In this document: one piece after another, positions 26,255 through 59,609 of the stretch
Position numbering within the stretch: position 1 is the first letter of the stretch
Layout: each line of letters opens with the position of its first letter
From: Turneriella sp.
GTDB taxonomy: Bacteria > Spirochaetota > Leptospiria > Turneriellales > Turneriellaceae
Length of the DNA: 64,000 nt
Assembly: GCA_965279515.1 (NCBI GenBank)
Contig: CBDIID010000003.1
Coordinates: 640,001-704,000 of the forward strand
Direction of reading: 5' to 3'
The notes under the pieces: model-generated
What the model was told of the DNA's origin: nothing
Seen by the model: the letters and a program-made list of their open reading frames with translations, nothing else
Databases searched by the model: none
Translations under genes and position numbers: made by a program

Positions 26255-26464
26255 GTTGATAAGTATATAGGCATTATACTCAATCGACCATAAAAAGTGA
26301 ATACTGCACACATTAAAGGTGCTATGATGGCGACTTTTTTTGGCACTCCTCGCATTTCAGTGCTAATATAGCTATGGTAGATAAGCCGTTTCTCAAGAAT
26401 TGGGTCTTTTTGCTCGAAACATGGATCGGCCTTCCTACATAAATTTCAAAATAGGAGGCCAACC

Positions 26465-31010: not shown

Positions 31011-31088
31011 GCTGGGGGGTCAGAATATCTGCGCAGGGATAGGCTACCTTAGGGTCAATGACCATAGTATCTGAATGAGATTACCTGT

Positions 31089-31667: not shown

Positions 31668-31674
31668 TATCCCA

Positions 31675-32244: not shown

Positions 32245-32252
32245 CCTGATTT

Positions 32253-42452: not shown

Positions 42453-42638
42453 TTCGTTCCCGATGGCTTAAATAGACCCGAAGTTGCCTGATGGAATACC
42501 TTCAGGCCGACACGATTCCATTTCAAAAGAGGGGTTTGGTTTCTTAGATGCGAGCAAAACTTGCTTGATAAACTTGATCCGGACACGAATCCTAATCAAA
42601 CTGCGCGAGTGTTTGTCAATCTGGATAAGGCTATCCGG

Positions 42639-43736: not shown

Positions 43737-43808
43737 AAATCCGCCGAACGCATATACGCTTCACCTTGAGTCACTGGAGCTCATAGGTGGGAATCTACAA
43801 CCCTTGAA

Positions 43809-43958
43809 TCAACGGCGATTTTTGTAATGGTTAGGCGGGAAAGCTTGGATGTGGTGCTCACGCTTAATATACGGATCCTTCTTTCGGGACCGAAGCGCCA
43901 TGATAATGGCGAGCAAACCAGCGGTTACCATGATCGTAATTATTACCGTCGCATCCAT
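43809..43958 (-). CDS. Small single-TM protein (49 aa), below the ORF-track cutoff
   Basis: MDATVIITIMVTAGLLAIIMALRSRKKDPYIKREHHIQAFPPNHYKNRR: hydrophobic helix then basic tail. Confidence 0.35.
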   Translation of the reverse strand: MDATVIITIMVTAGLLAIIMALRSRKKDPYIKREHHIQAFPPNHYKNRR

Positions 43959-44299
43959 TGGGGACAGAACATAGTCTTGCTTCAGTGGGAACAGCGCGGT
44001 CGGTTTTCAATCCTAGTATGTCCTTGAGGTAGTTGAAAAGCATGGTCGGAAAGCTGGTACGGGATTAAGAGGTCAGAGCCTTGCCGCAGGGTGCCTGTAC
44101 CCAGTGGATAGAATAACCCGGTAGTCAGCCCGGCCGTCGAGAGAGCCTGAGCCCGTGCCATAAGGACTATACCCCGAAGATTAGCAGCCTCGTATGAGGT
44201 AACCGTCCGGAAAACTGCGTCACTAAAATATCGAAGCGCTTATGTCGTCAATCGACAGGCAAATAGAATTATGAGCTTGCCGTCACATTATTCGGTTTC

Positions 44300-44776
44300 T
44301 TGCTTGATAACATGAGATTCTGGAGAATGCAATTACATCCGAATGAGCCTGAATACGCAACCCAATATACCGTTAACTGCTTGGCAAATAAGTATGTTGG
44401 TTTAGATTTTGAGGTTCCTAAGGGGGATCTAACAACGTATCCGCAAGGAAGCTTAGATACATCGCCAAATAATATTGCAGCCTTTGCCAACGAAGTGACT
44501 CAAGAAGATCAATTAATAATATTTCACCACAATCTGCCTTTTGCCCTAATTTCTAATATTGGTGAATACAATTACATCAAGGGCCCTGTAAAAGAAATGA
44601 ATATTTGGTTCAGACACTTTCGCCGGTTTGAAAATATTAGTTATTTTAACGATGTATTCAAACAAGGCAGGGATGAACATTTCAAAATCGTTATGGCAAA
44701 CACTTTCTCCGAAGCGACGCCCGATAGTGAAACGGGAAAATTAATCGCAGAATGGCTTCAAAAGTTGGGATCTTAA
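44300..44776 (+). CDS. Hypothetical protein (possible EVE/PUA-like domain)
   Basis: FWRMQLHP N-terminus and WFRHFRR motif; AT-rich ORF. Confidence 0.5.
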   Translation: MLDNMRFWRMQLHPNEPEYATQYTVNCLANKYVGLDFEVPKGDLTTYPQGSLDTSPNNIAAFANEVTQEDQLIIFHHNLPFALISNIGEYNYIKGPVKEMNIWFRHFRRFENISYFNDVFKQGRDEHFKIVMANTFSEATPDSETGKLIAEWLQKLGS

Positions 44777-45152
44777 GTTGGCGCACAGTGGCAGTTTGAA
44801 GTCGATTGATCATCCATTGTGATCTTAGGGTCAAGAAGGGCTTGATCAATCACATCCCTTCCGGCTGACGTCAATCGAATATTGGAGTCAGGAATTCTGC
44901 CGCGGCGCACGAGACACCGAGAAGCGGAGCTTAGCAGTAAACCCCCGTACCCCCGAAGACTTACATCTTTGTATGAGCTTCCTTTCAGGTAGAGGATTGT
45001 AACGAACTTATTACTTTCAGTTACAATCAAGAGGAAGATTAAGAAAGAAAGATCATACACCTGAAAACCGGTGCTCACAAACTGTTTTTTCCTTCGCAGT
45101 AACAATAGTGCCCATAAAGGAACCCACACTGCACGATGATCGTGTATCCTCT

Positions 45153-45223
45153 CAGGAAAGGTGTATAGAGAGGTGCGGATTTTTTTGCGGTTTTTGCATA
45201 ACCGACTCACCTTGGTCAAACAG
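45153..45223. repeat. 71-bp imperfect direct repeat, copy 1
   Basis: CAGGAAAGGTGTATAGAGAGG.GCGGATTTTTTT...CTCACCT.GGTCAAACAG recurs at 46583-46653. Confidence 0.85.
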
Positions 45224-45464
45224 AAGTCATTGGTGGGAAACTACGGCTTTGGGTCAACGGCGGTTTTTGTAGTGATCCGGAGGAAAAGCCTGAATGTGAT
45301 GCTCGCGCTTTATGTACATGTCCTTCTTTCTTGAGCGTCGCGCGATAAAAATGATCAGGAGACCAACACCTACAACAGCTGCTAGTACAAATGTGATATC
45401 CATTGAAAGCAGTGCGAATCATCGAGTCATGGTGAAGAGTCAAATAGACTCTATCGAAGAAATA

Positions 45465-45491
45465 GCCCGCAGCTAAAAATTGGCTGCGGGC
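45465..45491 (-). terminator. Hairpin terminator after the 45502 gene
   Basis: GCCCGCAGCT...GGCTGCGGGC stem followed by TATTTCTT on the minus strand. Confidence 0.5.
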
Positions 45492-45501
45492 ATCGGCGCA
45501 A

Positions 45502-46374
45502 TCAGTGGCAGACTTCTCGGTATCTAGCTAGGAGAGCTGCGCTCTTCCTCGCTCCTTCCAATACGCGTCTGAGTAATTCGTCTGAGTGAGCCTTTTTCGA
45601 GGCCCCATCACGGAAGCGGATAAGGCCTTCTAGGATAAAATCATCCATGCAAGCCTCAAACTCGGCTAAACCCGTTTGCCCATACGCTTCACTGTCGTAA
45701 ATGTCAGGAAACTCACCTGCTTTACTACCGGAAACGACCAGGACAGAAGCCGTAAATGGGAATGTTTTTTCTTCGATTTCTAAACCTGTCGCGATTTCGC
45801 TGGTAAACGGAAGTGCCAATATGGCATCAATGGCTCTCGCAGATGGTTTCCCGCTGATATTGACGATTATGAGGCGAGCCGCTGATAATCTCTGAGCCTG
45901 AGGTAGAGAAAGCCTACGAAAGTCGTGCAGCTCAGTTTCATTTACGACTACGGCTAACTTGCTAACTGCCTTGATCAAAGCATCCACGACGATATGTCGC
46001 GAGAGGTCACCACACAGGTGTACTATAGTTGCGGGTTTTTCTGGCGTGAAAATTGCGCCGCCGATAGCACGATAAAAAAGCTCGGCGCCGCGTTGTGCTT
46101 CCTCACAATCTAGATCTTCCTCCATGAAATCATCAATTCGATTGCACCTAAGGATACTTTCGAAATAACTAGGGAGCGGGGAATCGACTTCTGTTTTCGC
46201 AAGTTCATACGATCCGTTCAAGCATGGTTCGAACGACCCGGGTGTAAACTCTCCAGTAGCAAAGCGCAACCTGCCATTTCTGAACGCTATCGCATCCCTC
46301 GCTAAATCTTCTGAGTCAGAAAGACTTTCCATCTCCATCACTCTTTCACTTTGTCCTTGTGTTTCGTTTTTCAT
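45502..46374 (-). CDS. Degenerate D5/P4-primase-helicase-like protein
   Basis: IAFRNGRLRFATGEF resembles D5_N; IVHLCGD sits where Walker A is expected but there is no GKS. Confidence 0.5.
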   Translation of the reverse strand: MKNETQGQSERVMEMESLSDSEDLARDAIAFRNGRLRFATGEFTPGSFEPCLNGSYELAKTEVDSPLPSYFESILRCNRIDDFMEEDLDCEEAQRGAELFYRAIGGAIFTPEKPATIVHLCGDLSRHIVVDALIKAVSKLAVVVNETELHDFRRLSLPQAQRLSAARLIIVNISGKPSARAIDAILALPFTSEIATGLEIEEKTFPFTASVLVVSGSKAGEFPDIYDSEAYGQTGLAEFEACMDDFILEGLIRFRDGASKKAHSDELLRRVLEGARKSAALLARYREVCH

Positions 46375-46582
46375 AGTTATCCTACCTTTTGCCGCTGTAG
46401 CGGAGTTTATTTCCAAGACGTGAATTTCTTCACGACTCGGTTGAGCTCAGATACCAGCGCATGATGAAAAAAAGTGACCAGCTCCTAAAAAGGATCTTGC
46501 GATCAGAACCGAAGGTCTGGACAGGGAAACCGACCACGCCCGTGAAATAGAAACTATGTATGCCAGGTACGATTCTTGCCTC

Positions 46583-46653
46583 CAGGAAAGGTGTATAGAG
46601 AGGGGCGGATTTTTTTTCGGTTTCGGTATCAATACCTCACCTAGGTCAAACAG
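46583..46653. repeat. 71-bp imperfect direct repeat, copy 2
   Basis: Matches 45153-45223. Confidence 0.85.
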
Positions 46654-46990
46654 GAGGCTTTAGGGGCAATCTACGGGCACGGAGTCTATCTTTGAACCGG
46701 GTAAACTCTCGTTCCAGTAAGAGTACGGCTTCCGGCCTGTATCGCTTTGCATAAGAAAGGCTAATCTGAAATCCTCGTAGTAGCCCAACAGCATGAAGAA
46801 CTTGCTCAGCAGGAGCAAAGAGCCTGATCCGATTGAGCAGCCGGGATGTATCATCTGACCCACGGTCCAAGAAGATTGCCAGACCATCATGCCGTACCGC
46901 TTGAATCTGCTTCCCGTTTGAACTGATGATCCGGAGGTCCTTGGGTAACCGTGCAACGCCAGGAATCGTAAACTTCGATGCCCGTCGCAT
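46646..46990 (-). CDS. Hypothetical protein
   Basis: 114-aa ORF directly downstream of the DUF932 gene. Confidence 0.5.
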   Translation of the reverse strand: MRRASKFTIPGVARLPKDLRIISSNGKQIQAVRHDGLAIFLDRGSDDTSRLLNRIRLFAPAEQVLHAVGLLRGFQISLSYAKRYRPEAVLLLEREFTRFKDRLRARRLPLKPPV

Positions 46991-46992
46991 TC

Positions 46993-47751
46993 TCAGATCT
47001 TCCGGGCTCCGTATTGCATCGCCAGGTCAAACATGGCTTGGTTGAGGCGAATGTTTCGCTCCGCGTTTGTAACGCGACGCATTTTTTCACCGGTTACGGT
47101 GAAGACTCTGCCATTAATGATCTTCTCCTGCAGGACATTGAACACAGACCAAAGATCATCGCCTTTATCTGCAGTTCGCAAGGGAGTGAGAGCTTTTTGT
47201 AGATTGATTTCGCGTCGTTCTACAATTTCAGGCGTGAACCTGATCTTCATGAGATCGTTGGCGAATGCGAACTTCTCTGCTTCCAAGAGGTTGATCGATC
47301 GAAGGCGTTGGACACAGCCTGATATGCGAGGAACGTTATCAGCGTAGCTTGCTGCAGCTTCTCGAACTGCTTCGTATGTATATCGAATGTGCCTTATGGA
47401 GATAGAAGCAAACATGGCCTCGGAGATAACCAGACCGTTCGAGCAGACCAAGCGAAACAGGCCGGCAGATAATCTGAAAGATGATAAGCCGTCATGGCTG
47501 TTAAGCATCACGATCTCAGGGCATACTTCCTGCAATCCACCTGCCAGATGCTCAGGCTGTCGAAATCGTATGACGTGCTTGGCTGTTTCAGAACCTGATC
47601 TTCCCAAGACCTTCACGGGGTGCCACCCCAAAGAGATTAGGTCCGCTACGATTCTCGTGGTGGGAATAAACGTGTACTTTTCTGAAACTCCCTTGGGCTC
47701 TTTGGCACAGACCGCTGGAACGCCACAGCTCTGCAGATCGACTACTTCCAT
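46993..47751 (-). CDS. DUF932/DUF945 family protein
   Basis: SEKYTFIPT, NSHDGLSS, GLFRLVCSNGL, DLWSVFNVLQE. Confidence 0.88.
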   Translation of the reverse strand: MEVVDLQSCGVPAVCAKEPKGVSEKYTFIPTTRIVADLISLGWHPVKVLGRSGSETAKHVIRFRQPEHLAGGLQEVCPEIVMLNSHDGLSSFRLSAGLFRLVCSNGLVISEAMFASISIRHIRYTYEAVREAAASYADNVPRISGCVQRLRSINLLEAEKFAFANDLMKIRFTPEIVERREINLQKALTPLRTADKGDDLWSVFNVLQEKIINGRVFTVTGEKMRRVTNAERNIRLNQAMFDLAMQYGARKI

Positions 47752-47764
47752 ACTTCCTCCGTGA

Positions 47765-48472
47765 TCATCCTACGACCTCAGTAATATTTGCCGTCTCACA
47801 CTTGAGGCGTAGGATTCTCAATGCAGCCAACTCATGCTGACGTACTTTGTCCCGCCTCAGGCGTAGTTTACGACTCAGGAATTGAAGAGTTTTGATTTTT
47901 CGGTTACCGAGACCGTACCGGTGCTTGATGATAACTTGATAAAGTTTGGGAAGTTCGTGGACATACTGCCAAAGCCGTTCGATGAGATCCTTTTCCTCGA
48001 ACTGGTTCGCCGGATCATGGAGGCTGTCCTTCGCCATTAGCTTCTCGCCTTCGCTTGAGGAGACCAGCCGCTCCCACGAATCGGTGGAAATGAATGGATT
48101 TGTGTCCTCGACGCGGAGTTGGTTCAATCGATTTTTTGGGAAATGCACGCTGGAATATACCTCGCGTAAGTACCTGCTAATCGCCTCCCGTATGAAGAAG
48201 GATGCGTAGCTCACGAAGGTATAGCCACGATCTGGATTGAAACTCCCTGCCGCCTTCATCAGTCCGACGGTGCCTTCGCCGACAAGTTCCTCGATGCGCG
48301 CATGACTGAAATGAAAACTTGCAAGATGGACAACGAGACGCAGGTTGTGATAAATAAGTTTTTCTCGGGCGTTGGTATCTCCGGCTCTGGCGTCGCTTGC
48401 AAGCCGGAACTGTGTTTCCCGTGACAGAATCGGGATTTGACTGATCTTATTTATGGAGCCTGCGTGTTTCAT
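47765..48472 (-). CDS. Sigma-70 family RNA polymerase sigma factor (regions 1.2, 2 and 4)
   Basis: AREKLIYHNLRLVV, EGTVGLMKAAGSFNPDRGYTFVSYA, RYGL...TL...VRQHE..AL. Confidence 0.88.
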   Translation of the reverse strand: MKHAGSINKISQIPILSRETQFRLASDARAGDTNAREKLIYHNLRLVVHLASFHFSHARIEELVGEGTVGLMKAAGSFNPDRGYTFVSYASFFIREAISRYLREVYSSVHFPKNRLNQLRVEDTNPFISTDSWERLVSSSEGEKLMAKDSLHDPANQFEEKDLIERLWQYVHELPKLYQVIIKHRYGLGNRKIKTLQFLSRKLRLRRDKVRQHELAALRILRLKCETANITEVVG

Positions 48473-48535
48473 TCGCCATCTCTATATAACACCAAGCTAG
48501 CGCGACAGTCAGGCCAGTCCTGGCTGTGACTGAAT

Positions 48536-49201
48536 TTATTTGATCTGGATCGTGTACTTTTCAGAGAGTTGAGCGACACGACGGAACGTATGCCCACGGT
48601 CTTGCCGATCTTTCATGTGCCGCTTGAGCACATCTTTGCGCGGCTCGACTTGCAAGCCTCTTAGTTTGGATAGCATGCTGCCAAAAACAAGGAACTCATC
48701 CTCTGAGATTTCGTCGACGGAGTACTTCTTGAATTTCAAGGGTAAACGCTCGATAGCTCCGACCTGTATTGCGTCGGACTTACGCCAGCTAATGTTTGAT
48801 CTGACTCCCTTAACGGCAAGGCCAGGTTCTGAGGTGTCGTTTTGCAAGTACGCTGTCAGGTATCGCTTCAGCCAATCAGCTCTAGCTAGCGTGGCCTTTT
48901 CTCGTTTAGCAAGCCGGTCTTTCTCTTTTCCCAATAGCTCTGCTTCGCCGACGAGGCTCTTGATATAGACGGCTATGTTTGCGGCTTTTTCATCTTTGGC
49001 AAGAGTCAACTCCTTCAAGCGGTCACTGATTTTCTGTTCGAGCTCTTCGTCGACGATCTCGCCGGTTTCGCTGACGGTGAATTCGAGCATGTCGATGATT
49101 GAAGTGATTGCCTCGTCGATTTCATAAAGCCGGAACTTCGAGACATTAGAGGCGGAGACCCTTTCGGTCTCCGCTGATTGTGCTTTTTTGGCTGCGCCCA
49201 C
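48536..49201 (-). CDS. Siphovirus Gp157-like protein
   Basis: LYEI...KAANIAVYIK...EKDRL...LKRYL...ISWRKS pattern. Confidence 0.75.
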   Translation of the reverse strand: MGAAKKAQSAETERVSASNVSKFRLYEIDEAITSIIDMLEFTVSETGEIVDEELEQKISDRLKELTLAKDEKAANIAVYIKSLVGEAELLGKEKDRLAKREKATLARADWLKRYLTAYLQNDTSEPGLAVKGVRSNISWRKSDAIQVGAIERLPLKFKKYSVDEISEDEFLVFGSMLSKLRGLQVEPRKDVLKRHMKDRQDRGHTFRRVAQLSEKYTIQIK

Positions 49202-49202
49202 G

Positions 49203-50006
49203 TCAGGCCGCCACTTGCTTCTCGATGTCAGGCATCAGCTCGCGCAACAGTTTTTCCACGGCCGCGTAGTCAAAGTTCTTGCGCCTCACCATATCTAAGG
49301 ATTTGGCCTGAGAGAACCTCAGCTGTTGGAAAATCTGCTTCAGCGACATTGGCAACTCTTCATAGGTTGGCACCGAGGTCCTAGCCAAGGGTTGCGACGT
49401 AGTACGTGTAGTTGGCGTAGTCGGTGTAGTTCCGGATGCAACAGCAGTCTGCGCCTGTGTCGCGGCCTGAACTGCTGGTGTAGCTGGGTTGCTTTCGGTT
49501 TTGGACTCCGCTGAGCTTTCGACCTCAAGTTTTGGCGGGTTCCAGCGGAAGTTTATCCATGAGTTGTTGACTTTGTCTTTAGCTGATCCTTTGTACTGAC
49601 CGCGCTCATTGACAAAACCATACACGTTACCGACGTTGTAGAGGTATCTGCCTATCCCCCAGGCAACGGAGGCCCGACGGAACGCATTGGAAATTCCACC
49701 TTTGACCGGTTCGATCTCTGTGAGGGATGCGGCATCACATTTGTCAAGCCACTCGCCGTTGATTCGGATACTCAGGGTGCAGAGGATACCCGAGCCAGGA
49801 CCCTGACGGTATTTAGCCGTCCAATTTTCGGCACCCAAAATGTTGTCTAGACGATCTTGAATCGTTCGCGCATCAAGATACGGTGCTACCATGCACCAGG
49901 GTTCTCCTTTCTGATTAAGTCCCGACATAGTTGACCTCCATTTGACCTCTTCTGCTCGGAAGGGTACGGTGAGCCTTGACATTAGGCCTTGCTCTTTTTC
50001 ATTCAT
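49203..50006 (-). CDS. Rad52/Rad22 (Sak-like) single-strand annealing protein
   Basis: PF...VKWR, YLDAR.IQDRLD..G..NW, KGGISNAFRRA...WGIGRYLY. Confidence 0.88.
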   Translation of the reverse strand: MNEKEQGLMSRLTVPFRAEEVKWRSTMSGLNQKGEPWCMVAPYLDARTIQDRLDNILGAENWTAKYRQGPGSGILCTLSIRINGEWLDKCDAASLTEIEPVKGGISNAFRRASVAWGIGRYLYNVGNVYGFVNERGQYKGSAKDKVNNSWINFRWNPPKLEVESSAESKTESNPATPAVQAATQAQTAVASGTTPTTPTTRTTSQPLARTSVPTYEELPMSLKQIFQQLRFSQAKSLDMVRRKNFDYAAVEKLLRELMPDIEKQVAA

Positions 50007-50081
50007 TTAATCTCCTCGCCTCGCTGTAGTCGCGAGTGCTCAGTGAATGGAGTCCTCTGCACGGCAGAGTGTGCGGATAGT

Positions 50082-50846
50082 TTATGTGAAAAGTCGTGCC
50101 TGTTGCACCGAAGGTCTGTCTTGCAAATAAAGGAAGTAGATCGGTATGGACTTCGTAAAGGAAGCAAAGTATGGCCCTAAAACGCGGTTCTTCGTGGCGC
50201 CTGAAACATTGAGGGCGTCGAGGAAGTCAGAAAAATCAAAAAGATTTTCCACCGATGGAAAGAATGATTGGATCACTACTATAGCCGCTTTCGCACGGAG
50301 ATTTCTGGCCTCAAGAATGGCGGACGCTGTACGATGCATTAGCTGATAACGAAGTTCGCTATTCGCATAAACCTGAGTCCCGAGGACTTGATTCAGGAAA
50401 TCAAGCCGCCGTTGCTTGCGTTCGACGATGCCATTAGATATATCAAATAGTTTTTCCTGCTGGGCGCTGACCGATCGGTCAGCCGTGCGAATCCAGCGAA
50501 ATATTCGATCGGAAAAGGACTCTCGGCTTTTAGCCTCTACGGCAACAACGACACGATTGTTATCGCCATTTGAGCAGAAAGCCATAATGTCCGTTCTGCT
50601 CGGGGTGCTTAAGGTATCCAAAAACACTGCGTGTTCGGCCACGACACTTTCGGGTCGCAAACCCCGTAGCACCTCAATTCCAGAGTTACGGAGGACATAA
50701 TTAAGCGGCTCGGGTAAAACTGACTTCACGCCGCGCCATTTCATGGCGCATTCATAGGCAGAATAAGAGGGAACCCAGTTTTTGCGACCTACGGTTTCAA
50801 TCCAGTCATCGATAGTTTTGAGCGGACGTAGTGAATGTATCTCCAT
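50082..50846 (-). CDS. PD-(D/E)xK nuclease-fold protein (DUF6946-like)
   Basis: SAYE.A..W, EH, SRTD, VEAK..ESF, LRYQLMHRTASA. Confidence 0.65.
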   Translation of the reverse strand: MEIHSLRPLKTIDDWIETVGRKNWVPSYSAYECAMKWRGVKSVLPEPLNYVLRNSGIEVLRGLRPESVVAEHAVFLDTLSTPSRTDIMAFCSNGDNNRVVVAVEAKSRESFSDRIFRWIRTADRSVSAQQEKLFDISNGIVERKQRRLDFLNQVLGTQVYANSELRYQLMHRTASAILEARNLRAKAAIVVIQSFFPSVENLFDFSDFLDALNVSGATKNRVLGPYFASFTKSIPIYFLYLQDRPSVQQARLFT

Positions 50847-50922
50847 ATGGGATCACATATCTATAGTCCCGGCAGCATCCCAGTTGATGGCCGCCAGTTA
50901 TCTTATGAGCAAAGTGCCCTGT

Positions 50923-51516
50923 TTATTGAAAGGGAATGCGACGTAAAATTTTCAGGTCATCGATATAAAGAGTCACGCCATCCACTATGGTATGAACATG
51001 CCCTGTCTTGCCATTCGATGGAAAGCCTTTCTTGGCAGCTACACGGAAACTTAATGCGAATCTGTCATAACCCATCTCTTGCACTGCTTCCAGCACTCGG
51101 TCACGGTTCCGGTCATGCATAAGATCAAGCCCGAAAGTGATCGGGAGTTCCGATATCATGCCATCCTCGCCGGCTTCTTGAAGCTCGGGCAGCTTGCATT
51201 CTAATTCCACATCATAGGTCGGGCCTTTCCTACCAACACATCCTTCAGGCGGGGAATACCAGACTCCGGGTTTGAAGTGCCTGGCTCGAAATTGCTCGGC
51301 GGATTCCCAGAGCTTTTGCGACTTTATTGTCTTACCCTCATTTGAAAGTTGTGAATAAGTTTCTTTGTCTTCAAGCAGCCGTTTGAAGAAATCGACTCCA
51401 AAGACTTGCGCCGTTGGCTTTGCGTACAAAGCAATGACGGCGATGGAAATAAACGTGAGTGACAGGGAGTGCCGACTCACTTTGGGCTCGTCAACTGCTG
51501 CTGTAGATATTCGCAC
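50923..51516 (-). CDS. Hypothetical exported protein
   Basis: N-terminal hydrophobic segment; third gene of a small operon. Confidence 0.5.
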   Translation of the reverse strand: MRISTAAVDEPKVSRHSLSLTFISIAVIALYAKPTAQVFGVDFFKRLLEDKETYSQLSNEGKTIKSQKLWESAEQFRARHFKPGVWYSPPEGCVGRKGPTYDVELECKLPELQEAGEDGMISELPITFGLDLMHDRNRDRVLEAVQEMGYDRFALSFRVAAKKGFPSNGKTGHVHTIVDGVTLYIDDLKILRRIPFQ

Positions 51517-52061
51517 CCTGTAGTCGTTGTTGCGTAGTAGAGGTTCGTTCGCATCTCAGGGGCACCCTGGCAGTTTATCTCTAAAACATCGGTGTCTACT
51601 AAGCGTTCTTTGCATTCGGGAAATTGCAGGATAACATTCCAGGGACTCATGTTTGAACCACCTACATTCGCAGCATCAACACAGGTGTTACTCTTAGGGG
51701 AGAAAGCGAACCACCGATCTTTCAAAAGCCGGAATGTTCGGATGTTCTTCTGGCAGGTACCCTTGGAAGAAGCGAAGACGTAGATTCCGTTCCATTCTGC
51801 AGTAGCTTGATTCGGGCAGTCGATTGCTACGACACCGGTTTTGAGGTCATTCACAACAAAAGAACAGCCTGTTGTCCCGGCAGAGGTACCGATGACGAGG
51901 TGATTGACTTCACCTCGCTGGGCTTTCGTTGCCGCAACGCATTTGCCATCGGCAAAGAAATGCCAAGGAGCAGCCTGTGCCGAAATCTCGGAAACGCTTA
52001 GCGCGATCATGCCTAGGCCGAAGACAAAGGTCAAAGACGTTGTGCGCTTACTTCTTAACAT
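51477..52061 (-). CDS. Cys-rich exported protein
   Basis: Signal peptide from ATG 52061; 8 Cys in two similar halves. Confidence 0.55.
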   Translation of the reverse strand: MLRSKRTTSLTFVFGLGMIALSVSEISAQAAPWHFFADGKCVAATKAQRGEVNHLVIGTSAGTTGCSFVVNDLKTGVVAIDCPNQATAEWNGIYVFASSKGTCQKNIRTFRLLKDRWFAFSPKSNTCVDAANVGGSNMSPWNVILQFPECKERLVDTDVLEINCQGAPEMRTNLYYATTTTGCEYLQQQLTSPK

Positions 52062-52431
52062 ACGTACCCTCGAACCAGCCGAATCCCTTGATAGTTTTAT
52101 CGTCCGCCTTCTCAAAGCGGACTTCACCTTGTCTCGGGTCCTTAATGTAATAACTGTTTCCGCGTTTTGTGTACTCAAAACAGCCTGCTTCAGCATTTTT
52201 AGAGAGGCCCATGCCCGAGGCGGTGATGCAAGCTCGGCCGTCGCGAAAGTCGATTGCTGCGATAAGGCAGCGACCGCAAGTATACTTGCCGGAAAAATCT
52301 GCGCGGCTACATGCTACGCTGAGCAGCATGGACAGAAGTCCCAGGAGCCTGATCGATGCCCAAAAGACGCACTTCGTCTTCAAGCTGAGTTTACGTTGGG
52401 TAGGTGAATAATCTAGTAGGATGGTTTTCAT
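52048..52431 (-). CDS. Small lipoprotein
   Basis: Lipobox SVAC; divergent from the XRE gene. Confidence 0.55.
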   Translation of the reverse strand: MKTILLDYSPTQRKLSLKTKCVFWASIRLLGLLSMLLSVACSRADFSGKYTCGRCLIAAIDFRDGRACITASGMGLSKNAEAGCFEYTKRGNSYYIKDPRQGEVRFEKADDKTIKGFGWFEGTYVKK

Positions 52432-52501
52432 ATTGTACCTATCATAACGAGTACCTATTTCGTCAAGGTGGTTTTATTGTAGGTACTGTGTATAAACAGG
52501 G

Positions 52502-52756
52502 ATGAAAGAGAAGCCCAACCTTGAGCGTGAGTTTGAAGCCTTCCTAAAAACCTTTGGCAAGAAAGTAAAAGAAGTCAGAACACAGAAGCAACGTACTCAG
52601 GAATGGATGGACGATAAACAGGACTTTGGAATCGATATCAAGCACTTCCAGAGCATCGAACAGGGTAGATCGAATGTCACCTTGCGAACGATATTCAAGG
52701 TCTGTCGAAAGCTAGGTGTTCAACCCTCTGATTTGTTTAAGGGGGTTTCTGTCTAG
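52502..52756 (+). CDS. XRE-family HTH regulator
   Basis: FGKKVKEVR...TQE...IEQGRSNVTLRTI..C..LGV.PSDL. Confidence 0.85.
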   Translation: MKEKPNLEREFEAFLKTFGKKVKEVRTQKQRTQEWMDDKQDFGIDIKHFQSIEQGRSNVTLRTIFKVCRKLGVQPSDLFKGVSV

Positions 52757-53206
52757 CTATTGCGGTAGACAGGAGCCCGAAGGCTCCCTCGTCCTCATTG
52801 TTTGCCCTGTAGGCCGGTGCTGCCGCGGTATTTCACTGGCGAGTGAATATTGTGCATCGGATGGCGAACCCATCCGTAGCTGCCTGAGTATGGTTGGTGT
52901 ATAGGTGTGGGGGGGGGAAGAAGAAAGCTCTAACTATATTAGCTGCTTTATCTTGTTTTGTTTTTATGGTTAAGGGTGCGACCCTTCGAGTGCTGGGATT
53001 TCCCCAACACCGAATTAGACACTCCGCAGACATAACAAGGCGAGGATGCTTGTTAGGTCTACGGAGGATCGAGTTCATGTTCATTCTAATGAACAAATAC
53101 AAGTACGCCTACCCAGGCTTCGAGAAACAGGGCAGAGCAGACTGTTTTGTCAAAATCAAATAATAGGCGTGGTCAGTGAGGTCACTGTGGTCATTTCTTT
53201 TTCCAG

Positions 53207-53650
53207 TTATGGGTACTGCATCTCCCATAGAAAACGAATCTGCCTAGCCTGCAGTTCATCCTGCCATTCCCTCAGGGTCTTCAGCCGTCTCCGAGGTTTT
53301 GGTGGGCTTAAGACCACTCGTACGAACCGGCTATCCAACGCTGATAGTTCTTCCAGCGCATTTCCACATAAAATTATGAAAGTCGACCCCTGAAAAATCA
53401 ACCTGTCCACGATAGGTAGCAACAAACCACATTCCGCATTTGATAGCTCGCTCACGTGCCAAATGAGGATCCGTGGAGGCACGAAAAATGAGCTCCCATG
53501 TGACATCTCAAGTACAAAGTCTTGCGAATTCCAATTACAAAATACGGTTTCTTCACCAAAATAATTTGGCTCCATATGCCCAAGAGTCAACCGCTTCCTT
53601 CGAATAAAGCGCCGGAGTTCGGACCGAGTTCCAAACGCTAGATAATTCAT
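53207..53650 (-). CDS. Degenerate clamp-loader-like AAA+ protein
   Basis: ILIWHVSELS...LL...FIILCG...ALDSRF resembles the DnaX/HolB core with an SRC-type arginine finger but no Walker motifs. Confidence 0.45.
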   Translation of the reverse strand: MNYLAFGTRSELRRFIRRKRLTLGHMEPNYFGEETVFCNWNSQDFVLEMSHGSSFFVPPRILIWHVSELSNAECGLLLPIVDRLIFQGSTFIILCGNALEELSALDSRFVRVVLSPPKPRRRLKTLREWQDELQARQIRFLWEMQYP

Positions 53651-53792
53651 TGACGCAACCGACTTTGCCTCGATTTCCTTGACGGCAATCGATGGATATG
53701 GATATCAATCCGGGGAAATAGGTTGTGCTCGATTTCAGGATCACTTAACCGGTGAGATAGATTCATAAGTGCCATAAGGATCGAATCTCTAG

Positions 53793-55033
53793 CAGGGTGT
53801 TGAAAAACGCATAGAATCGGGTATCCGTTCAAACCATAAATACGATTGGACGGGCACGTATTTTGCGCCTTGCCACCTTCGCTTCTGGGCGCAACGGGCT
53901 CATAGCTTGCCAGCCAAAATAACCAGATTGGCTGCCGCCATCGTGAATATGAAATGAAAGCCAACCTTAGCTTTGCCGCAGTAGCGTGTTTTACGGATAC
54001 CACCGATGGTTTTGCCCCAGCCAAATAATTCTTCAATCCGTTTGCGAACGCGTTGGCTGATTGCATAGCCGGTACTTCGCGCCGTTCGGCGATCAAGGCC
54101 TGGTGTTTTTCGTGTTTCAATCATGGCGATGTGCGGTTTTATCTTCAATGACCTGAGCGATGCTACCATGTCTTTCGTATGGTAGCCTTTGTCTGCACCC
54201 AATGTTCGCGGCTTGATTTTGCGCTTGCGGAGATTCTTTAATAGAGCAAGCAAGCCACGGCGTTCTGCTTTGCCATCAGCAGCCTCCAGGTTTGCCGCAA
54301 CACAAAGACCGGTACGATTTTCCATGACGACATTACCGCAGTAAGACAGCTTTGCTTCTTTGCCGGGGCCCTTGCGTGCAAGCATGGATTCGGGATCAGT
54401 AGTACTGGCATGTGTTTCATTGCTGCGTTTTTCATCGTGAAAATTCACGATCGGATTGCGACTGGTGTCTATTGGCTTTTCGCGTTTTACGTCTGCATCT
54501 TTTTGTTTCGGCTTAAAGCTTTTAAGCGATGCCCATGCTTCGATCAATGTGCCGTCAGCGGTGAAGTGTTCATCAGAGACCAGATTCTTGCTTTGCGCAA
54601 AACGAACGACCTGCGCCAGAAAGCTATTTGCGATTTCCTGATTGAGGAGGCGTTCGCGGTTTTTGGCAAAAGTACTGTGATTCGGAACAGGATCATTCGG
54701 CATCAGATCAAGAAACCAGCGGAAGAGAAAATTGTAGCTGAGTTGTTCACAAAGCTGGCGCTCCGAACGAATCGAATAAAAAGCGATCAGAAGCGATGCC
54801 TTCAGCAAAAACTCCGGCGGTATCGAGGGTCTGCCAGCATCGGCGTACATCTTATCAAGTGCTCCATCCAGTTTGCCGAGCACGTCATCGGCCATAGTCT
54901 TGATTTTACGCAATGGATGCGACGGCGGAATCAGATCTTCCGCAGAGAAATTGTAGAGAAAATTCATCTGAGCTTTTTGGTCACCGCGCATTGGCTCAAT
55001 ATAATCAAAATTAAGGACTTCTTCAACACCCTG
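53793..55033 (-). mobile_element. IS5-family insertion sequence (1241 bp)
   Basis: Terminal inverted repeats CAGGGTGTTGAA; CTAG target duplication at 53789-53792 and 55034-55037. Confidence 0.92.
53900..54991 (-). CDS. IS5-family DDE transposase
   Basis: GRPSIPPE, RSERQLCE, DGT, ADKGY, RKRIEELFGWGK. Confidence 0.92.
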   Translation of the reverse strand: MRGDQKAQMNFLYNFSAEDLIPPSHPLRKIKTMADDVLGKLDGALDKMYADAGRPSIPPEFLLKASLLIAFYSIRSERQLCEQLSYNFLFRWFLDLMPNDPVPNHSTFAKNRERLLNQEIANSFLAQVVRFAQSKNLVSDEHFTADGTLIEAWASLKSFKPKQKDADVKREKPIDTSRNPIVNFHDEKRSNETHASTTDPESMLARKGPGKEAKLSYCGNVVMENRTGLCVAANLEAADGKAERRGLLALLKNLRKRKIKPRTLGADKGYHTKDMVASLRSLKIKPHIAMIETRKTPGLDRRTARSTGYAISQRVRKRIEELFGWGKTIGGIRKTRYCGKAKVGFHFIFTMAAANLVILAGKL

Positions 55034-56115
55034 CTAGTTACGGCTGCTTGGAAATCGGTAAGCTTGAGTACGGCAGCCATGTGAGCAACATGTTTAAGCG
55101 GAATGCGACTTCGCGTGTCGAGATAAGCATTCTTAGAATTAAGATTACCGTAAGAAACTTGTCTCTCAGTTAGATAACTTCGATACAGATTCAATAATGT
55201 GCGTGTCAGATTCTGCGCAAACTTTTGCGGCGGCGATTTAAGTAGCCACTTGCATGCACATTCATCTAGCCCTTCTGTGTCGTTGCCGATCATTGTTATC
55301 ATTTGCAAGTAGTCAGTATCTGTAGGGATCCCGAAGACTTCAGTAAGCAGCCGTCCATCTATCTCCCTATCTCCGCTCAGACTGACGGCATACTCTAGGT
55401 GGTTTAGAGCGGAGCGCATGTCGCCATCTCCGTGATTACACAAATACCATAAAGCATCATCAGTCGCTTGGATTTTTTCACTTTGGCAGATTTCTCGTAA
55501 GTGTTCGATTACTGTGGCATGAGAAATCGGATCAAACTCGATATTAATACATCGCTTTCGTAAAGACGGATCTACACCCCGGCGCTTGTCCGGCGTCGTA
55601 GCGAATACAACAGTAATGCGTTTTGTGCTAAAATGGTTTTCGATACCCAGTACCTGATTCCGGAATTTTGCTTCCTTTTCAGCATCAATAAAATCGTCAT
55701 AAAAGCGAAGAAAAGCGCCCTGTTGCCGAATCGGTAGATTTCCAATCTCATCAAATACAAGAACCTTATGATGGCCGGATTTCGGTAAGTTAACGAATTC
55801 TAAGGCGGACTCTATTTCTTCCACGCTTGTATTTGCGCAGTTTACATATGCATAATACTCCTTCGGGTAAGTGTCGAAATCCAAACACTTGGGACATACG
55901 CAGCAAGCATCCCTTTCATTTTCAAATTCGATGCAATTAACAGCCTTCGAAATAATTGAAGCTGCTGAAGATTTGCCAGTACCTGAAGGTCCAACGAATT
56001 GAAAAAATTCGATGCTACTTCTATGGAGATTGTTCTGAATAGCCAAAATCGCCCGGCCTTGACCTAATATTTCCCCAAGCTTTCGGGGGCTGTATTTTGT
56101 TACATATGACATGGC

Positions 56116-57279
56116 TTAACCCCAACGGAGTTGATCATGGATGCGATTTGCGCGTTCCTTTTCTGACAATAGAAACCGACTAAGCTGCTTTCGATACTCT
56201 GGTTTTAGGTCCATATGATTAAAGAAGCGTCGCTTCGGGCGAGCATCCCCCTTTTTCCATTCGGGCGGCCTCTCATTTTTGCGCAGCCCAATGGAAGTCG
56301 TGTGTCTGTTTTCACGGCCCATTTGCTCGCCGAAGTCTTCCACATCAAGAGGTATGCGGTGATGGTGTTTTTCACAAAACGCACAATAGAAAGCGTATAG
56401 ATCATTGTTCAATATTCGCAATTTAGGGCCATGCATACAGGCCTCATCGATAAAATGTGCTAACAGGTTATTTTTCAGCTCCCATTGCTGTAATTCGGCC
56501 TCGAACCAGTCAAAATCGATAGTATGGTCATAGCCCGGGTCGCGATCCCACTTTAGCCATGCGATGAATTTGCGGATCTCTGACGGGGACGTGACAAGAG
56601 TCTTCAGCAAACTTAGTTGCCCCGTGCTGATTTTCTCGGATCGAAATTGAAATGGTAAAATTACGTCACGCAATGAATCCGAGTACGGCAGATCCCGGTA
56701 GTCTGAATCAGCGTAGGTGATTAGCACGGACTTTCTTTTTGCACTGGCATAAGATTGGTTTAGGGATGTTGAAATGCGGTCACTAAGCGTCAGATTCATG
56801 AATAGTCGCAGGGTAGCCATTGATACAGGGTTGCGTAGAGGTACTTGGATAATCTTGTGCTTTCTTAGATTTTGAACTCCACGCCGATTTAGTTGATTTA
56901 TTGATAATTGACCGGGGTCAATAAAGTCCATCACGGCATTTTTTCCCGCGTGCGTAATAACTGCGCGAAGCAGCGAAGCTAATGGCTCGCCAAACACATA
57001 CAGTATTTTCTGAATCGGCACTCCATAGTGAAAGATGGCCCCTAGGGTTAAGCGCAAAGCTTCGCGAAATGCTTTCTTTTCACGAATACCCTGTCGAGGA
57101 CAGTACTTTATGCATTCTGATGCGATTAGGGGAAGATCCCGCGGCTTCAGTTGTCGGAACCGTTCTGAATCGAAACTGGCATTGGAATAAATTGAATGAT
57201 TCTGGATGTCGCTGTTGTCCATAAGTCTCCTTGAAATATTTTGTGTGTTAGAGGCTGGTTGATATTGCTGCTTGCACAC
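56116..57279 (-). CDS. Degenerate D5-like helicase with C-terminal winged-helix-like region
   Basis: N...FIDEAC...LY..YC.FC...PL....FG..M is typical of the D5 C-terminus; KILYVFGE lacks the Walker A lysine. Confidence 0.55.
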   Translation of the reverse strand: MCKQQYQPASNTQNISRRLMDNSDIQNHSIYSNASFDSERFRQLKPRDLPLIASECIKYCPRQGIREKKAFREALRLTLGAIFHYGVPIQKILYVFGEPLASLLRAVITHAGKNAVMDFIDPGQLSINQLNRRGVQNLRKHKIIQVPLRNPVSMATLRLFMNLTLSDRISTSLNQSYASAKRKSVLITYADSDYRDLPYSDSLRDVILPFQFRSEKISTGQLSLLKTLVTSPSEIRKFIAWLKWDRDPGYDHTIDFDWFEAELQQWELKNNLLAHFIDEACMHGPKLRILNNDLYAFYCAFCEKHHHRIPLDVEDFGEQMGRENRHTTSIGLRKNERPPEWKKGDARPKRRFFNHMDLKPEYRKQLSRFLLSEKERANRIHDQLRWG

Positions 57280-57573
57280 CTAATGGTCGCCATCGAATTT
57301 TGAAACACGCGCCCTCACTAAACCAATTTAATCAGGGTTTCTTTTTCCGGCAAGTGAGGCAAAACGCCAGAAACTTCCCCTGTAGCATCGACAGGTCGAT
57401 GAATTAAGAGGATTTTTTGCGTAGAAAAAAAGTTCAGATTTTCGAGACGAAATGCGAAAAAATGTCTGTTTGTGCGATCACTCGGTTCAGAGCTAGCTTG
57501 CATTCGCAAAAAAAAAGTTGATTTTGTCGCTTTTGAGTTACGAAAAATCGCCTCTCAGTTGTATTATATAGGC

Positions 57574-57801
57574 ATGAAACCATGCCTATATAATACAACA
57601 ACTCCCGATTCGGGCATCTCTCTCGAGAGCGACACGCTTAACCATTGGGCTGAAATGGTAGTTTCCTTGATAGAGTCGAGCCAACTCATGCCTAGTCCCC
57701 CCTTCGAGGAATCACCATTCTTCGGCATAGTGGAGGCGAAGCTTCGATTTGACATTACAGGGAATCCGTACATTCTATGGATCAAGCGAGGACGCGTATG
57801 A
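57574..57801 (+). CDS. Small hypothetical protein coupled to the integrase
   Basis: 75 aa; its TGA overlaps the integrase ATG (ATGA at 57798-57801). Confidence 0.45.
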   Translation: MKPCLYNTTTPDSGISLESDTLNHWAEMVVSLIESSQLMPSPPFEESPFFGIVEAKLRFDITGNPYILWIKRGRV

Positions 57802-59465
57802 TAAAGAAGACATTTGTTGCTGCCGTCTATCTTCGGGTTTCAACGAAAAAACAGGCTGATACCGGCACTGCGATATCTGGTCAAAGAAAGGCAATCGTCG
57901 ACTTTCTTGCTCGAGAGAAAATTCAGGCATACAAATTCTATGTCGACGAAGGTTTGAGTGGAACCAACACGAAGCGACCTGCATTGCAGAGGCTTTTAAG
58001 CGATGCAGAGCAACCGGATGCTCCGTTTAATATGGTAATATTTTGGGATGTCTCGAGACTCGATCGGTCACTGAGGAATTGGGTCAATCATATCTATAGT
58101 TTGCGCGACCTTGGGATATCGATACGAACGGTAGACGCTAATCTAAATCTGGATGACCCGACTCATGAGCTCGTGGCGCTTCTCAGCGGTTATCAGGCAG
58201 AACAATTTTCCATTACTCTGAGTAAGAATACGAGACGCGGCATGAATGAGACCATCAGACAAGGGTTCTATACTTACGGAAAACCTCCATTCGGATATGA
58301 TATCAAAAAAGTAGCTTATTCTGGGACAATGAAAAACAAGCTGATCTTAAATGAAGATGAGGCTAAATTGGTTGAGAAAATGTTTGCTTTAACGGTTACC
58401 AATGATCTTGGCGCGAAGAAGATTGCAGCCAGTCTGAATGGCCAAGGATATAGACATCGGAATGGGAAACAATTCAATTTCAAGACCATACTCAAGATCT
58501 TACGCAATGAGGTTTATACCGGTAGCCTCATCGGTGATAAAACGAGATTTTTGAATGGCCGGCGAGTAGAAAATGAACCGGAAAACAGGGTTGTGCACCC
58601 GAATGCTCACCACGCAATCATAGATAAAAGGACTTATAAGAAAGCTCAAGAACGGATTGATGGCCGGCATAATGGAAAGTACAATTCCAGAACCGCCAAC
58701 AGCCAATTTCTTTTTACAGGCATAGCCTTCTGCGGTATTTGCGGCTTACCCATGTTCAGTACACATGGCAGAGCAAAGAATAAATCAACCCATTTCTACT
58801 ATGCATGCAAAGGACGTATAACACAGAAATCATGTTCTCTACGGAATTTTCGGCAACCAATGCTCGATGCACTTCTTCTAACCGTTATTGAAACGGAAAT
58901 CCTGGCCAAAACCAACCTTGAATCGGTAGTAAAAAAAGTTAATATGGCCATGGGTAAACGCACTCAACTTATGACAGAACAGGTAACTGCGATGAGCAAA
59001 GAGATTGGTGTATTGAAGCAAAAAATGGAGCGCATTACTAACCTGTTAATCACCCATAACGACAGTGACGCTGATGTTCTTCTACCGAAGTTAAACGAAC
59101 TCGATAGGGAAAAGGTAGCTCTGGAAATTCAGCAGCGAAGCATAAATGATTCCCGTTTTCAACCGGTCGTGGTTAGAAACCTCGATCAGCTGTTGGGAAA
59201 TCTCAAACTCTTGCTTACATCAGTGGACCTTCCAAAACGAAAGGCCTTTGTTTCGGCGTTCATAAGCAAAGTAGAGATCTTTGAAGATAAGGCGGTCTTG
59301 CATTACAAGAATCCGTTGGATCCGGCACGAAACAGGTTCATCGCGCCGTTTGCTGAGGCATTGACAACAATGCCCAAAAAGTCATTGGAGCTCTCCAAGG
59401 GTGGGGTTCACCTTTGGGTCTCCTATGCGTCCCCTAGGGGAATCGAACCCCTGTTGCGGGAATGA
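57798..59465 (+). CDS. Large serine recombinase (resolvase, recombinase and Zn-ribbon domains)
   Basis: YLRVST..Q, DEGLSG...RP, SRLDRS, PPFGY, ILRNEVYTG, CGICG...YYAC...C, coiled coil. Confidence 0.95.
   Translation: MIKKTFVAAVYLRVSTKKQADTGTAISGQRKAIVDFLAREKIQAYKFYVDEGLSGTNTKRPALQRLLSDAEQPDAPFNMVIFWDVSRLDRSLRNWVNHIYSLRDLGISIRTVDANLNLDDPTHELVALLSGYQAEQFSITLSKNTRRGMNETIRQGFYTYGKPPFGYDIKKVAYSGTMKNKLILNEDEAKLVEKMFALTVTNDLGAKKIAASLNGQGYRHRNGKQFNFKTILKILRNEVYTGSLIGDKTRFLNGRRVENEPENRVVHPNAHHAIIDKRTYKKAQERIDGRHNGKYNSRTANSQFLFTGIAFCGICGLPMFSTHGRAKNKSTHFYYACKGRITQKSCSLRNFRQPMLDALLLTVIETEILAKTNLESVVKKVNMAMGKRTQLMTEQVTAMSKEIGVLKQKMERITNLLITHNDSDADVLLPKLNELDREKVALEIQQRSINDSRFQPVVVRNLDQLLGNLKLLLTSVDLPKRKAFVSAFISKVEIFEDKAVLHYKNPLDPARNRFIAPFAEALTTMPKKSLELSKGGVHLWVSYASPRGIEPLLRE
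59404..59429 (+). repeat. Right att direct repeat (26 bp)
   Basis: Identical to 7641-7666; lies inside the integrase CDS and overlaps the last bases of tRNA-Glu. Confidence 0.9.
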
Positions 59466-59499
59466 AAATCCCGAGTCCTAACCGCTAGACGAAGGGGAC
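59428..59499 (-). tRNA. tRNA-Glu(TTC)
   Basis: GTCCCCTTCGTCTAGCGGTTAGGACTCGGGATTTTCATTCCCGCAACAGGGGTTCGATTCCCCTAGGGGACG folds as a cloverleaf; CCA not encoded. Confidence 0.95.
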
Positions 59500-59536
59500 T
59501 AATCCTTCTAACCGACACCTTGCGGCACCGGCCCTG

Positions 59537-59609
59537 TGAGAAGCCCGGGAATCGAACCCGGGACCCACTCCTTAAAAGGGAGTTGCTCTACCGACTGAGC
59601 TAGCTTCTC
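59537..59609 (-). tRNA. tRNA-Lys(TTT)
   Basis: GAGAAGCTAGCTCAGTCGGTAGAGCAACTCCCTTTTAAGGAGTGGGTCCCGGGTTCGATTCCCGGGCTTCTCA folds as a cloverleaf. Confidence 0.95.

Follow-up and report, generated by a model that had tools for sequence, protein, structure and literature searches.

Sequence evidence for a large serine recombinase whose gene spans its attachment site and whose C-terminal tail is probably exchanged at a tRNA-Glu gene

The DNA analyzed in this work is a 64,000-nt stretch of the Turneriella sp. contig CBDIID010000003.1 (positions 640,001 to 704,000), hereafter called the window; positions in the whole genome carry the prefix C3. Toward its right end, a large serine recombinase gene runs into a tRNA-Glu gene located on the opposite strand and terminates within it. 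The gene and the sites at this junction are the following.

57777..59465, plus strand: large serine recombinase gene, integrated form, 562 aa (open reading frame [ORF] list and Pfam)
59427..59499, minus strand: intact tRNA-Glu(UUC), the integration target, providing the B′ arm (ARAGORN; Rfam 59428..59499, 60.2 bits)
59404..59429, plus strand: P arm of the attachment (att) site, a 26-bp direct repeat (repeat family D4) read as codons G-V-H-L-W-V-S-Y-A, with GGTTC at 59405-59409
59426..59433: common core TGCGTCCC, 8 bp, which takes in the tRNA-Glu discriminator and the end of the acceptor stem (junction comparison)

Pfam analysis of the 562-aa product identified the domains Resolvase (PF00239, E value of 1.8e-26, residues 15-163), Recombinase (PF07508, 8.9e-22) and Zn_ribbon_recom (PF13408, 8.3e-11). 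In an alignment of 83 sequences, the column of the serine nucleophile S22 shows at least 90% conservation, and C319, C322, C344 and C353 are nearly invariant. By its domain set and its catalytic and zinc residues, the product of 57777..59465 is a complete large serine recombinase. Its AlphaFold2 model, also based on 83 sequences, has a mean predicted local distance difference test (pLDDT) value of 88.6, with a folded core that extends to about residue 518 and includes long coiled-coil helices (378-426 and 429-458) and a last beta-hairpin (496-510). The remaining residues of the integrated form, 519-562, have pLDDT values below 50 and are predicted to be disordered.

Codons 1-551 of the gene belong to the element, and codons 553-562 with the stop codon are antisense to tRNA-Glu. 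The protein thus ends in ...GGVHLWVSYAS-PRGIEPLLRE, the last 38-39 nt of the ORF being antisense to the acceptor and T arms of the tRNA, and its TGA stop falls in the anticodon loop. The initial annotation of this DNA had read an integrated tail VHLWVSYA-SPRGIEPLLRE from the tRNA antisense strand, in agreement with an ORF that ends at 59465 inside tRNA-Glu. The core TGCGTCCC is common to every junction that we compared, with copies at 20484-20491 and 59426-59433. The crossover must, from this comparison, fall inside the 8-bp core, at codons 551-552, and is placed no finer than the core; in the model these codons lie 33 residues past the folded part, within the stretch predicted to be disordered. 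The 26-mer GGGTTCACCTTTGGGTCTCCTATGCG is found at 7641-7666 and 59404-59429, and a degenerate copy with 79% identity is found at 20462-20490. A tyrosine integrase acting at this repeat was considered and rejected, as the 51 ORFs of the window scanned with Pfam include no such domain and no displaced tRNA fragment is present; a 46-nt pattern from the 3′ part of tRNA-Glu, with up to three mismatches, gave a single match, so this part of the tRNA is not repeated.

The other end of the element lies 38.9 kb to the left, where the following features were found.

20488..59429: youngest element, 38,942 bp, with replication and recombination genes and defence cargo (Pfam on 51 ORFs of the window; PADLOC, 14 ORFs)
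20488..20586, plus strand: displaced 3′ gene fragment (P′ arm and tail), 32 codons SPGIPNYEPEWAVEVELPPSLKGKTEVISPKY and a stop (sequence and frame arithmetic)
20395..20487, plus strand: relic of an older recombinase gene, of which the final ~31 codons are left, WSAPFAESLEFMPKMQSEQPAGVVHLWASRA (tblastn, 58% identity)

At this inner site, GCG at 20485-20487 is in frame with GAA at 20509 and TGA at 20584-20586, which gives SPGIPNYEPEWAVEVELPPSLKGKTEVISPKY followed by the stop. The displaced fragment is therefore 38.9 kb away from the recombinase gene and stands in frame behind a relic of an older one. The relic was detected by tblastn of the recombinase against the window, as a match to its last ~33 residues at 20395-20493 with 58% identity and an E value of 8.7e-6 (8.7e-4 for the same relic in a whole-genome search). 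It reads WSAPFAESLEFMPKMQSEQPAGVVHLWASRAS and continues in the same frame, with no stop, into PGIPNYEPEWAVEVELPPSLKGKTEVISPKY, which ends at the stop codon at 20584-20586. From its frame, 20395-20586 is a natural uninterrupted P-core-P′ junction, in which left arm, core and right arm follow each other in one reading frame. Its left arm comes from the older, now deleted recombinase gene, and its right arm and tail come from the 38,942-bp element. The conserved tail is encoded by the right arm together with the next ~30 nt. Recombination within the shared core would rejoin the recombinase gene and the tail in frame to encode a protein of 583 aa. As had been proposed from the letters of this stretch, joining to the inner site is thus in frame. 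Among the 51 scanned ORFs, we found neither a tyrosine integrase gene in the youngest element nor a second ORF with a Resolvase domain in the window. Taken together, sequence comparisons at both ends show an island of 38.9 kb whose own large serine recombinase inserted it at the 3′ end of tRNA-Glu, with the att site inside the recombinase gene.

Comparison of junctions across the genome showed that the tRNA-Glu locus is a tandem array: besides the youngest element it contains at least five older ones of that family, all decayed, and each of them left a tail. The array starts 7.7 kb before the window and ends at 59429. Its junctions are located at C3:632291, 633812, 634546, 647666 (window 7666), 655023 (window 15023) and 660487 (window 20487), and the series ends at tRNA-Glu, C3:699429 (window 59429). 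Given this stacking, the recombinase end has its cognate partner at the inner site. The outermost junction carries a terminator hairpin (GGCCGGC...GCCGGCC and an A-run) that directly adjoins tRNA-Glu in the congeners G011, G005 and G002; it is therefore the original host arm, and ~67 kb has accreted. The older junctions in the window, and the second tRNA gene beyond the array, are listed here.

15036..15086, plus strand: degenerate junction of an older element, with the tail EQPAGEPEWQIEVNLP and a stop; the core is largely lost (repeats D5 and D8; translation)
7585..7666, minus strand: H-module, a relic of a recombinase 3′ end that includes the left 26-mer, 7641-7666 (fold; weak tblastn match, E value of 0.32)
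7667..7719, plus strand: decayed tail of an older element, with a 1-nt deletion in the core (GCGCCC for GCGTCCC), REAPAGEPEWQIEAAL and a stop, out of frame with GCG (sequence)
59536..59609, minus strand: tRNA-Lys (tRNA search)

The H-module, of approximately 100 bp, is found at several inner junctions, and its last 26 nt are the repeat; its likeness to the recombinase 3′ end rests on weak tblastn matches, with E values of 0.04-0.4 over the whole genome. At least three unrelated native terminators and the relic module serve as left arms among the junctions compared, which include those of congeners and metagenome contigs. As element-type, native-terminator and relic left arms are all used, the tRNA arm and the core may carry most of the specificity.

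At the outer site, GAA at 7687 lies 23 nt past GCG at 7664 rather than 24, and the in-frame reading, PVRHPP...KVAAA, stops at 7733-7735. The initial annotation had noted this reading, its stop and a missing T, and the missing T is real: a near-identical paralogous junction of this genome, 13 kb further upstream, reads GCGTCCCGTGAGG with the T, and all other tails have it too. Its suggestion of an ssrA-like AA end is not supported, because such an end arises only through the 1-nt deletion in the decayed outer copy and none of the 11 tails described below ends in AA. Since the deletion lies in an old, decayed junction, the AA end is a by-product of decay rather than a feature of the system.

Several observations were made on these older parts of the array. 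The outermost junction, with its native terminator arm and tail, is duplicated 1.5 kb apart (C3:632284-633844), one copy having EPVW for EPEW, and between the two copies a relic module is joined to a fragment that resembles a different tRNA. A plus-strand stretch, GGTTCGATTCCCCGACGGGGTCA, is found just upstream of each relic module (window 7560-7597, C3:632918-632960, C3:634443-634485, and L034 of G008); it is similar to an inverted tRNA-Glu T arm and acceptor end, and neither ARAGORN nor Rfam called a gene there. The older element located between window positions -5454 and 7666 encodes repeat-rich, tail-fibre-like proteins (window 295-7009) and a Peptidase_S74 chaperone domain (3229-4746) and contains 50-nt repeats (1503-2260), which suggests a decayed prophage.

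We then considered the displaced tails as a group. A repeat search had revealed a family around GAACCTGAGTGG, the EPEW arm, at 7687, 15051 and 20509, and the wider survey yielded 11 distinct tails, of which 7 come from this genome, 2 from the congener G007, and 1 from G005, G008 (identical to L039 and counted once) and L054. Ten of them are in frame with GCG-TCC, the exception being the copy with the 1-nt deletion. The 11 tails align codon for codon, and GAA CCT GAG TGG, coding for EPEW, is nearly invariant, wobble positions included. The six codons that follow keep the type of residue while the codons change: codon 12 is represented by four codons for I or V, codon 14 by three codons for V or A, and codon 16 by seven codons, all for L, I or F. 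Codons 11-16 lie about 30-50 nt from the core, past the usual half-site of ~25 nt. In 9 of the 11 tails the stop follows codon 16 by 0-1 codons, and similarity ends at or near the stop. Their final residues are L, LA, LP, IP or Y, with KYP in L054.

Substitution patterns also argue for a coding tail. Over the 11 tails, the minimum numbers of changes at codon positions 1, 2 and 3 are 13, 15 and 23. The two tails of G007 differ at 11 of 48 nt, 10 of which are third positions, with one non-synonymous codon; random placement of 11 changes gave so few non-synonymous codons in none of 100,000 trials. Among all pairs of tails, which are not independent, synonymous and non-synonymous codon differences number 174 and 306 in frame, compared with 103 and 399 or 29 and 431 in the shifted frames. 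The third-position variation and the end of homology at or near the stop indicate that the tail is coding. It is thus under coding constraint, and the EPEW codons probably double as an attP half-site. The initial annotation had also raised the possibility that the EPEW arm is conserved only as a DNA-binding site, with no conservation of frame. The near-invariant DNA of the arm, which mirrors GGTTC, agrees with a role as DNA; the frame is kept nonetheless and the later codons vary synonymously, so that the second part of this proposal fails.

In the element site, GGTTC and GAACC each lie ~25 nt from the core, on opposite sides and mirrored, and GAACC of the tRNA T-loop lies ~20 nt from the core. 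A difference of ~5 bp in motif distance between element and host half-sites fits the attP/attB rule derived from work on A118. The mirrored motifs and the invariant wobble positions suggest that the EPEW stretch is probably a protein-binding motif as well as a series of codons, GAACC in the E-P codons being probably the distal motif of attP.

A word-indexed protein search found only two close relatives of the recombinase, P0002 (55% identity) and P0003 (52%). The latter was tied to the recombinase gene of G007 by its C-terminal ending and its 52% identity. All three proteins, i.e., that of the window, P0002 and P0003, end in ...WVSYASPRGIEPLLRE, encoded by the tRNA. In the DNA of G007 the right junction is the same as in the window and the ORF runs into the tRNA; the P-arm stretch is conserved despite only 52% protein identity. 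The island of G007 spans 34.7 kb, its far end reads ASRGTPNSEPEWQIEVPL up to the stop, and a second, outer junction on a native terminator arm reads ASRGTPNCEPEWQIEVPL, also up to the stop. The fragment P0069 (59% identity) ends in ...VVHLWVSYASPRGRG, which would fit a junction with another tRNA of the same acceptor stem. These like endings, together with displaced tails that are in frame and show a coding pattern of substitutions, support the initial proposal that the att site lies within the last codons of the recombinase gene and that the C terminus depends on integration.

The pattern core-N17-GARCCNGARTGG was present in 4 of 190 genomes of the class, all of this genus (G000, G005, G007 and G008), and the reversed control gave no match, so that its occurrence is not due to chance. 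A scan of metagenomes with the pattern returned 31 stretches, of which 2 are related (L039 and L054, both attL-type junctions and not free attP) and 29 are not. In G008 the relic module directly adjoins tRNA-Glu, a recombinase gene being absent, and a tail is found 3.9 kb away, which rules out G008 as an empty site. The flank of tRNA-Glu in G012 was tried as a recombinase C terminus and dropped (BLASTP E value of 0.99).

More distant proteins show similar overlaps; homologues of the recombinase were counted at 43,090. With a regular expression of our own making, antisense-T-loop motifs were found in the last 40 aa of 44 of 216 homologues, compared with 47 of 2534 windows from the protein bodies. 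In two loci, L004 (G033) and L005 (G030), recombinases of ~28% identity run 36-39 nt into tRNA-Asn and tRNA-Asp antisense, as read from the DNA; both genomes belong to other families of the same order. The design is therefore not tied to one tRNA. In a subfamily of ~25% identity with W-L-P near the junction, here called WLP, both states appear to be represented among the database proteins: five proteins were seen by eye to end in tRNA-type residues, and about nine uninterrupted tails share ...[LI][LR]T...[VI]x[VI]x[LM]P, which resembles W-x-[IV]-E-V-x-L-P of the window subfamily. Fourteen of the 216 homologues end in -AA or -VA (RRAA, SLAA, TLAA, QLAA, RLAA and similar), and in some homologue subfamilies the uninterrupted form may thus finish with a degron-like sequence, in contrast to the window subfamily. 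Proteins with such ends include P0081, P0083, P0089, P0098, P0119, P0129, P0131, P0194 and P0211.

The youngest element carries a varied cargo, with defence genes between 20661 and 43736. An RNaseH-helicase ORF that is MkoA-like (20661-24095) is followed by a pair of M78 peptidase and helix-turn-helix genes (25402-26311) and an E2-E1-JAB fusion (27621-29864). An SNF2 helicase (32253-35024) matches HmaA (E value of 1.3e-94) and BrxH (1.8e-100), and a large adenine methylase (35542-38745; HmaB, 2.6e-35) adjoins a DUF499 ATPase (39747-42452); together the three resemble an Hma-like helicase-methylase-ATPase set. Two LmuA-like ORFs also lie within this defence region. A 94-nt direct repeat with 81% identity (45153-45246 and 46583-46676, 1.4 kb apart) precedes small minus-strand ORFs. 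A DDE transposase (DUF772 and DDE_Tnp_1; 53900-54991) inside the island overlaps the neighbouring ORFs and is probably an insertion sequence; it lies among replication genes, which code for an AAA clamp-loader-like protein (54964-56112) and a D5-like protein (56116-57279).

Our best joint explanation, which we hold to be probable though by no means secure, is an island whose recombinase gene spans its attP, a working tail that only the circle encodes, and a built-in latch. Integration leaves the tail at the far end of the island, and the chromosomal gene instead ends in 10-11 residues read from the tRNA antisense strand; excision would restore the 583-aa enzyme with its EPEW tail. In the circle-encoded enzyme the tail would have a function, probably as a short beta-strand (W-x-[IV]-E-V) that packs against the folded core from the end of a flexible linker of ~33 residues, which would house the att site. 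As only the circle encodes the tail, the enzyme that integrates the island would differ from the one that the resident island can make. In the reading that we favor, this acts as a latch: the full enzyme would come only from an incoming circle, and the chromosomal form, lacking the tail, would be weakened or altered, thereby steadying the integrated state. That the tail may control activity, stability or directionality, such that its loss may weaken, stabilize or redirect the enzyme, we infer only from its conservation and from the structure predicted for one relative. In the model of that relative, P0131, taken by eye as having an uninterrupted tail, a disordered linker (508-527) precedes a tail strand (531-536), and the block 531-540 has a mean pLDDT of 94.

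A number of observations weigh against this explanation. The tail of the 38.9-kb element is itself atypical, with 16 extra codons, and the invariant GAA CCT GAG TGG could be conserved as DNA alone. Internal junctions with an element-type left arm imply that later elements entered a site of the attR or attL kind rather than one like attB, which the site selectivity of canonical serine integrases would not predict. The structural hint on the tail comes from P0131, a relative of ~25% identity, and not from the window protein. Docking of a 63-aa junction peptide against core residues 1-518 supports a docked tail weakly, with a score of 0.38 (best of three controls, 0.00), runs that agree in at least 63% of contacts and a partner pLDDT of at least 35. 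Of 157 solved complexes, 116 reach the mark applied, as do 2 of 215 mismatched pairs; at scores of 0.60 or below, only 18 of the 157 complexes and both passing mismatches do so. On the other side, the score is low, and half of the peptide would naturally follow on in the chain. Nor was the free form seen. In four sequencing runs of the organism, contigs covering 59100-59700 contained no circle or empty-site junction, although contigs cannot show absence; the sole loose contig end, at 59433, corresponds to the paralogous junction of the same genome at C3:634544. A search of 5.8 billion proteins, for which three junction peptides were aligned (E value up to 10), found no longer protein with this tail, none of the 213 candidates scored having passed, and viral contigs gave no match to the core-N17-tail pattern.

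The strongest rival is passive overlap, which we regard as unlikely but serious: in a compact element the gene would simply run through attP, the read-through would have no function, and the arm would be conserved only as a DNA-binding site. The predicted disorder of residues 519-562 in the integrated form is consistent with this, as are the EPEW codons, invariant as DNA and forming an inverted repeat with the left arm, and the available text of McMurdie et al. (2011; PMC3146451) gives a similar, "trivial" reading for dsiB. Passive overlap accounts poorly, however, for codons 11-16, which lie outside the usual half-site and vary at third positions while the residue type is kept, and for the conserved position of the stop. 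A similar [IV]-x-V-x-L-P, recognized by eye in the subfamily of ~25% identity, one member of which has a confidently predicted strand, also argues against it.

A very improbable alternative is that the overlap exists for the sake of the tRNA, the 3′ end of the gene having been shaped as a new trailer or terminator for tRNA-Glu, with the protein tail as a by-product. Read on the tRNA strand, the 3′-terminal codons of the recombinase gene in G007 fold into a hairpin of 12 bp, with U6 after it (-29.7 kcal/mol, z score of -4.1). The relic modules beside tRNA-Glu fold more strongly (z scores of -5.2 to -7.1) and are followed by U-runs; the H-module of the window, 7585-7666, reaches -30.4 kcal/mol (z score of -5.6), also with a hairpin and then a U-run. 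Modules of hairpin and U-run are located at window 7585-7666, L011:17819-17900, L013:12480-12570 and L039:1085-1170. It thus looks as if the element brings a replacement terminator for tRNA-Glu, which may explain why the relics survive, and in G008 the module has outlived the rest of the gene. The intact gene of the window has a weaker hairpin (z score of -2.3) with no U-run, however, and a terminator scan found no terminator-like site for it, so that read-through from the tRNA could run antisense across the recombinase gene. Moreover, such a role concerns the left arm and leaves the conservation of the displaced tails unexplained.

The least probable is a degron switch, in which the circle-encoded tail would be an ssrA-like tag that keeps the integrase short-lived until integration removes it: the 14 homologues with -AA or -VA ends, and 5 of the ~9 uninterrupted WLP tails by eye (RRAA three times, RLAA and RLVA), are in its favor, and the principle is known from the integration-dependent immunity of mycobacteriophages, but the window subfamily has no such end among its 11 tails, and AAA before the stop at 7733-7735 appears only through the 1-nt deletion of a decayed copy.

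Serine integrases are prized as simple, one-directional tools, and direction is thought to come from site geometry and a separate factor. If the attP inside the gene, with its circle-only tail, works as proposed, rewriting of the tail on integration would be a testable, extra layer of directional control, and pipelines that start from the ORF of an integrated island may be working with an enzyme that is truncated or altered. We also considered a wider form of this proposal, which is doubtful at present: that throughout a broad, largely undescribed clade of tRNA-targeting serine integrases the C-terminal strand encoded across attP is a directionality device, such that only the circle encodes the integration-competent enzyme and integration edits the gene into a form that carries out the reaction differently or can no longer repeat it. 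If this were true, direction would be written partly in the position of the gene and not only in a separate factor, and mining integrated copies for genome-engineering integrases would yield the wrong isoform. The locus itself shows how one tRNA gene can accumulate a 67-kb stack of defence-carrying elements.

The recombinase has the same domain set as the canonical phage serine integrases (SPbeta SprA, TP901-1, A118/LI, phiC31 and Bxb1), its best solved relative being SprA/YokA (9dxh, E value of 1.1e-12), and it shares with them a short att site with inverted outer motifs. The canonical enzymes differ in having protein-coding genes or intergenic regions as targets. Their attP is adjacent to the integrase gene instead of within it, and a separate factor determines direction. 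Staphylococcal cassette chromosome (SCC) elements accrete in tandem at one site, as in this array. The best NCBIfam similarities of the recombinase are to CcrC (E value of 5.7e-46, 157.1 bits) and CcrB (1.6e-39, 136 bits); these lie below the cut-offs of 900 bits, so that it is not a member of either family, and target and cargo differ from those of SCC. In the integration-dependent immunity of mycobacteriophages, attP is inside the repressor gene and integration removes a C-terminal tag, the integrases being of the tyrosine type. The window subfamily differs from these systems in that it has no degron-like end.

An attP inside the integrase gene is also found in Mx8 (IntP/IntX) and in SSV, whose integrases extend across attP according to the available text of Hudson et al. 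(2015; PMC4383910); integration alters the C terminus in Mx8 and splits the gene in SSV. These are tyrosine recombinases, with other chemistry and site architecture. The same text states that serine integrases were not known to target tRNA genes, whereas the present work documents serine integrases that do, and a term search of Durrant et al. (2022; PMC10083194) gave no mention of tRNA or of C-terminal changes.

The closest parallel is DsiB, the serine recombinase of the ssrA islands of Dehalococcoides, with which the design of a gene that spans its att site is already in print (McMurdie et al. 2011, PMC3146451). As far as the text available to us goes, its authors proposed that full function of the enzyme may require a circle-borne gene or a neighbouring island that supplies the 3′ fragment. 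Likened by its description there, DsiB is a large, Ccr-like serine recombinase with tandem island arrays at a tRNA-like target. It differs in that this target is the tmRNA gene (ssrA, T-loop) rather than the 3′ end of tRNA-Glu, and in that its module of six genes also codes for another, small serine recombinase, DsiA, whereas one Resolvase ORF was found here among 51; the accessible parts of that paper report no analysis of selection on the displaced fragment. Our searches of the open-access literature turned up no description of a tail swap at a tRNA gene for a serine integrase. What this work adds is the tRNA target, evidence that the tail is under selection, and the confident prediction of a beta-strand for a related tail.

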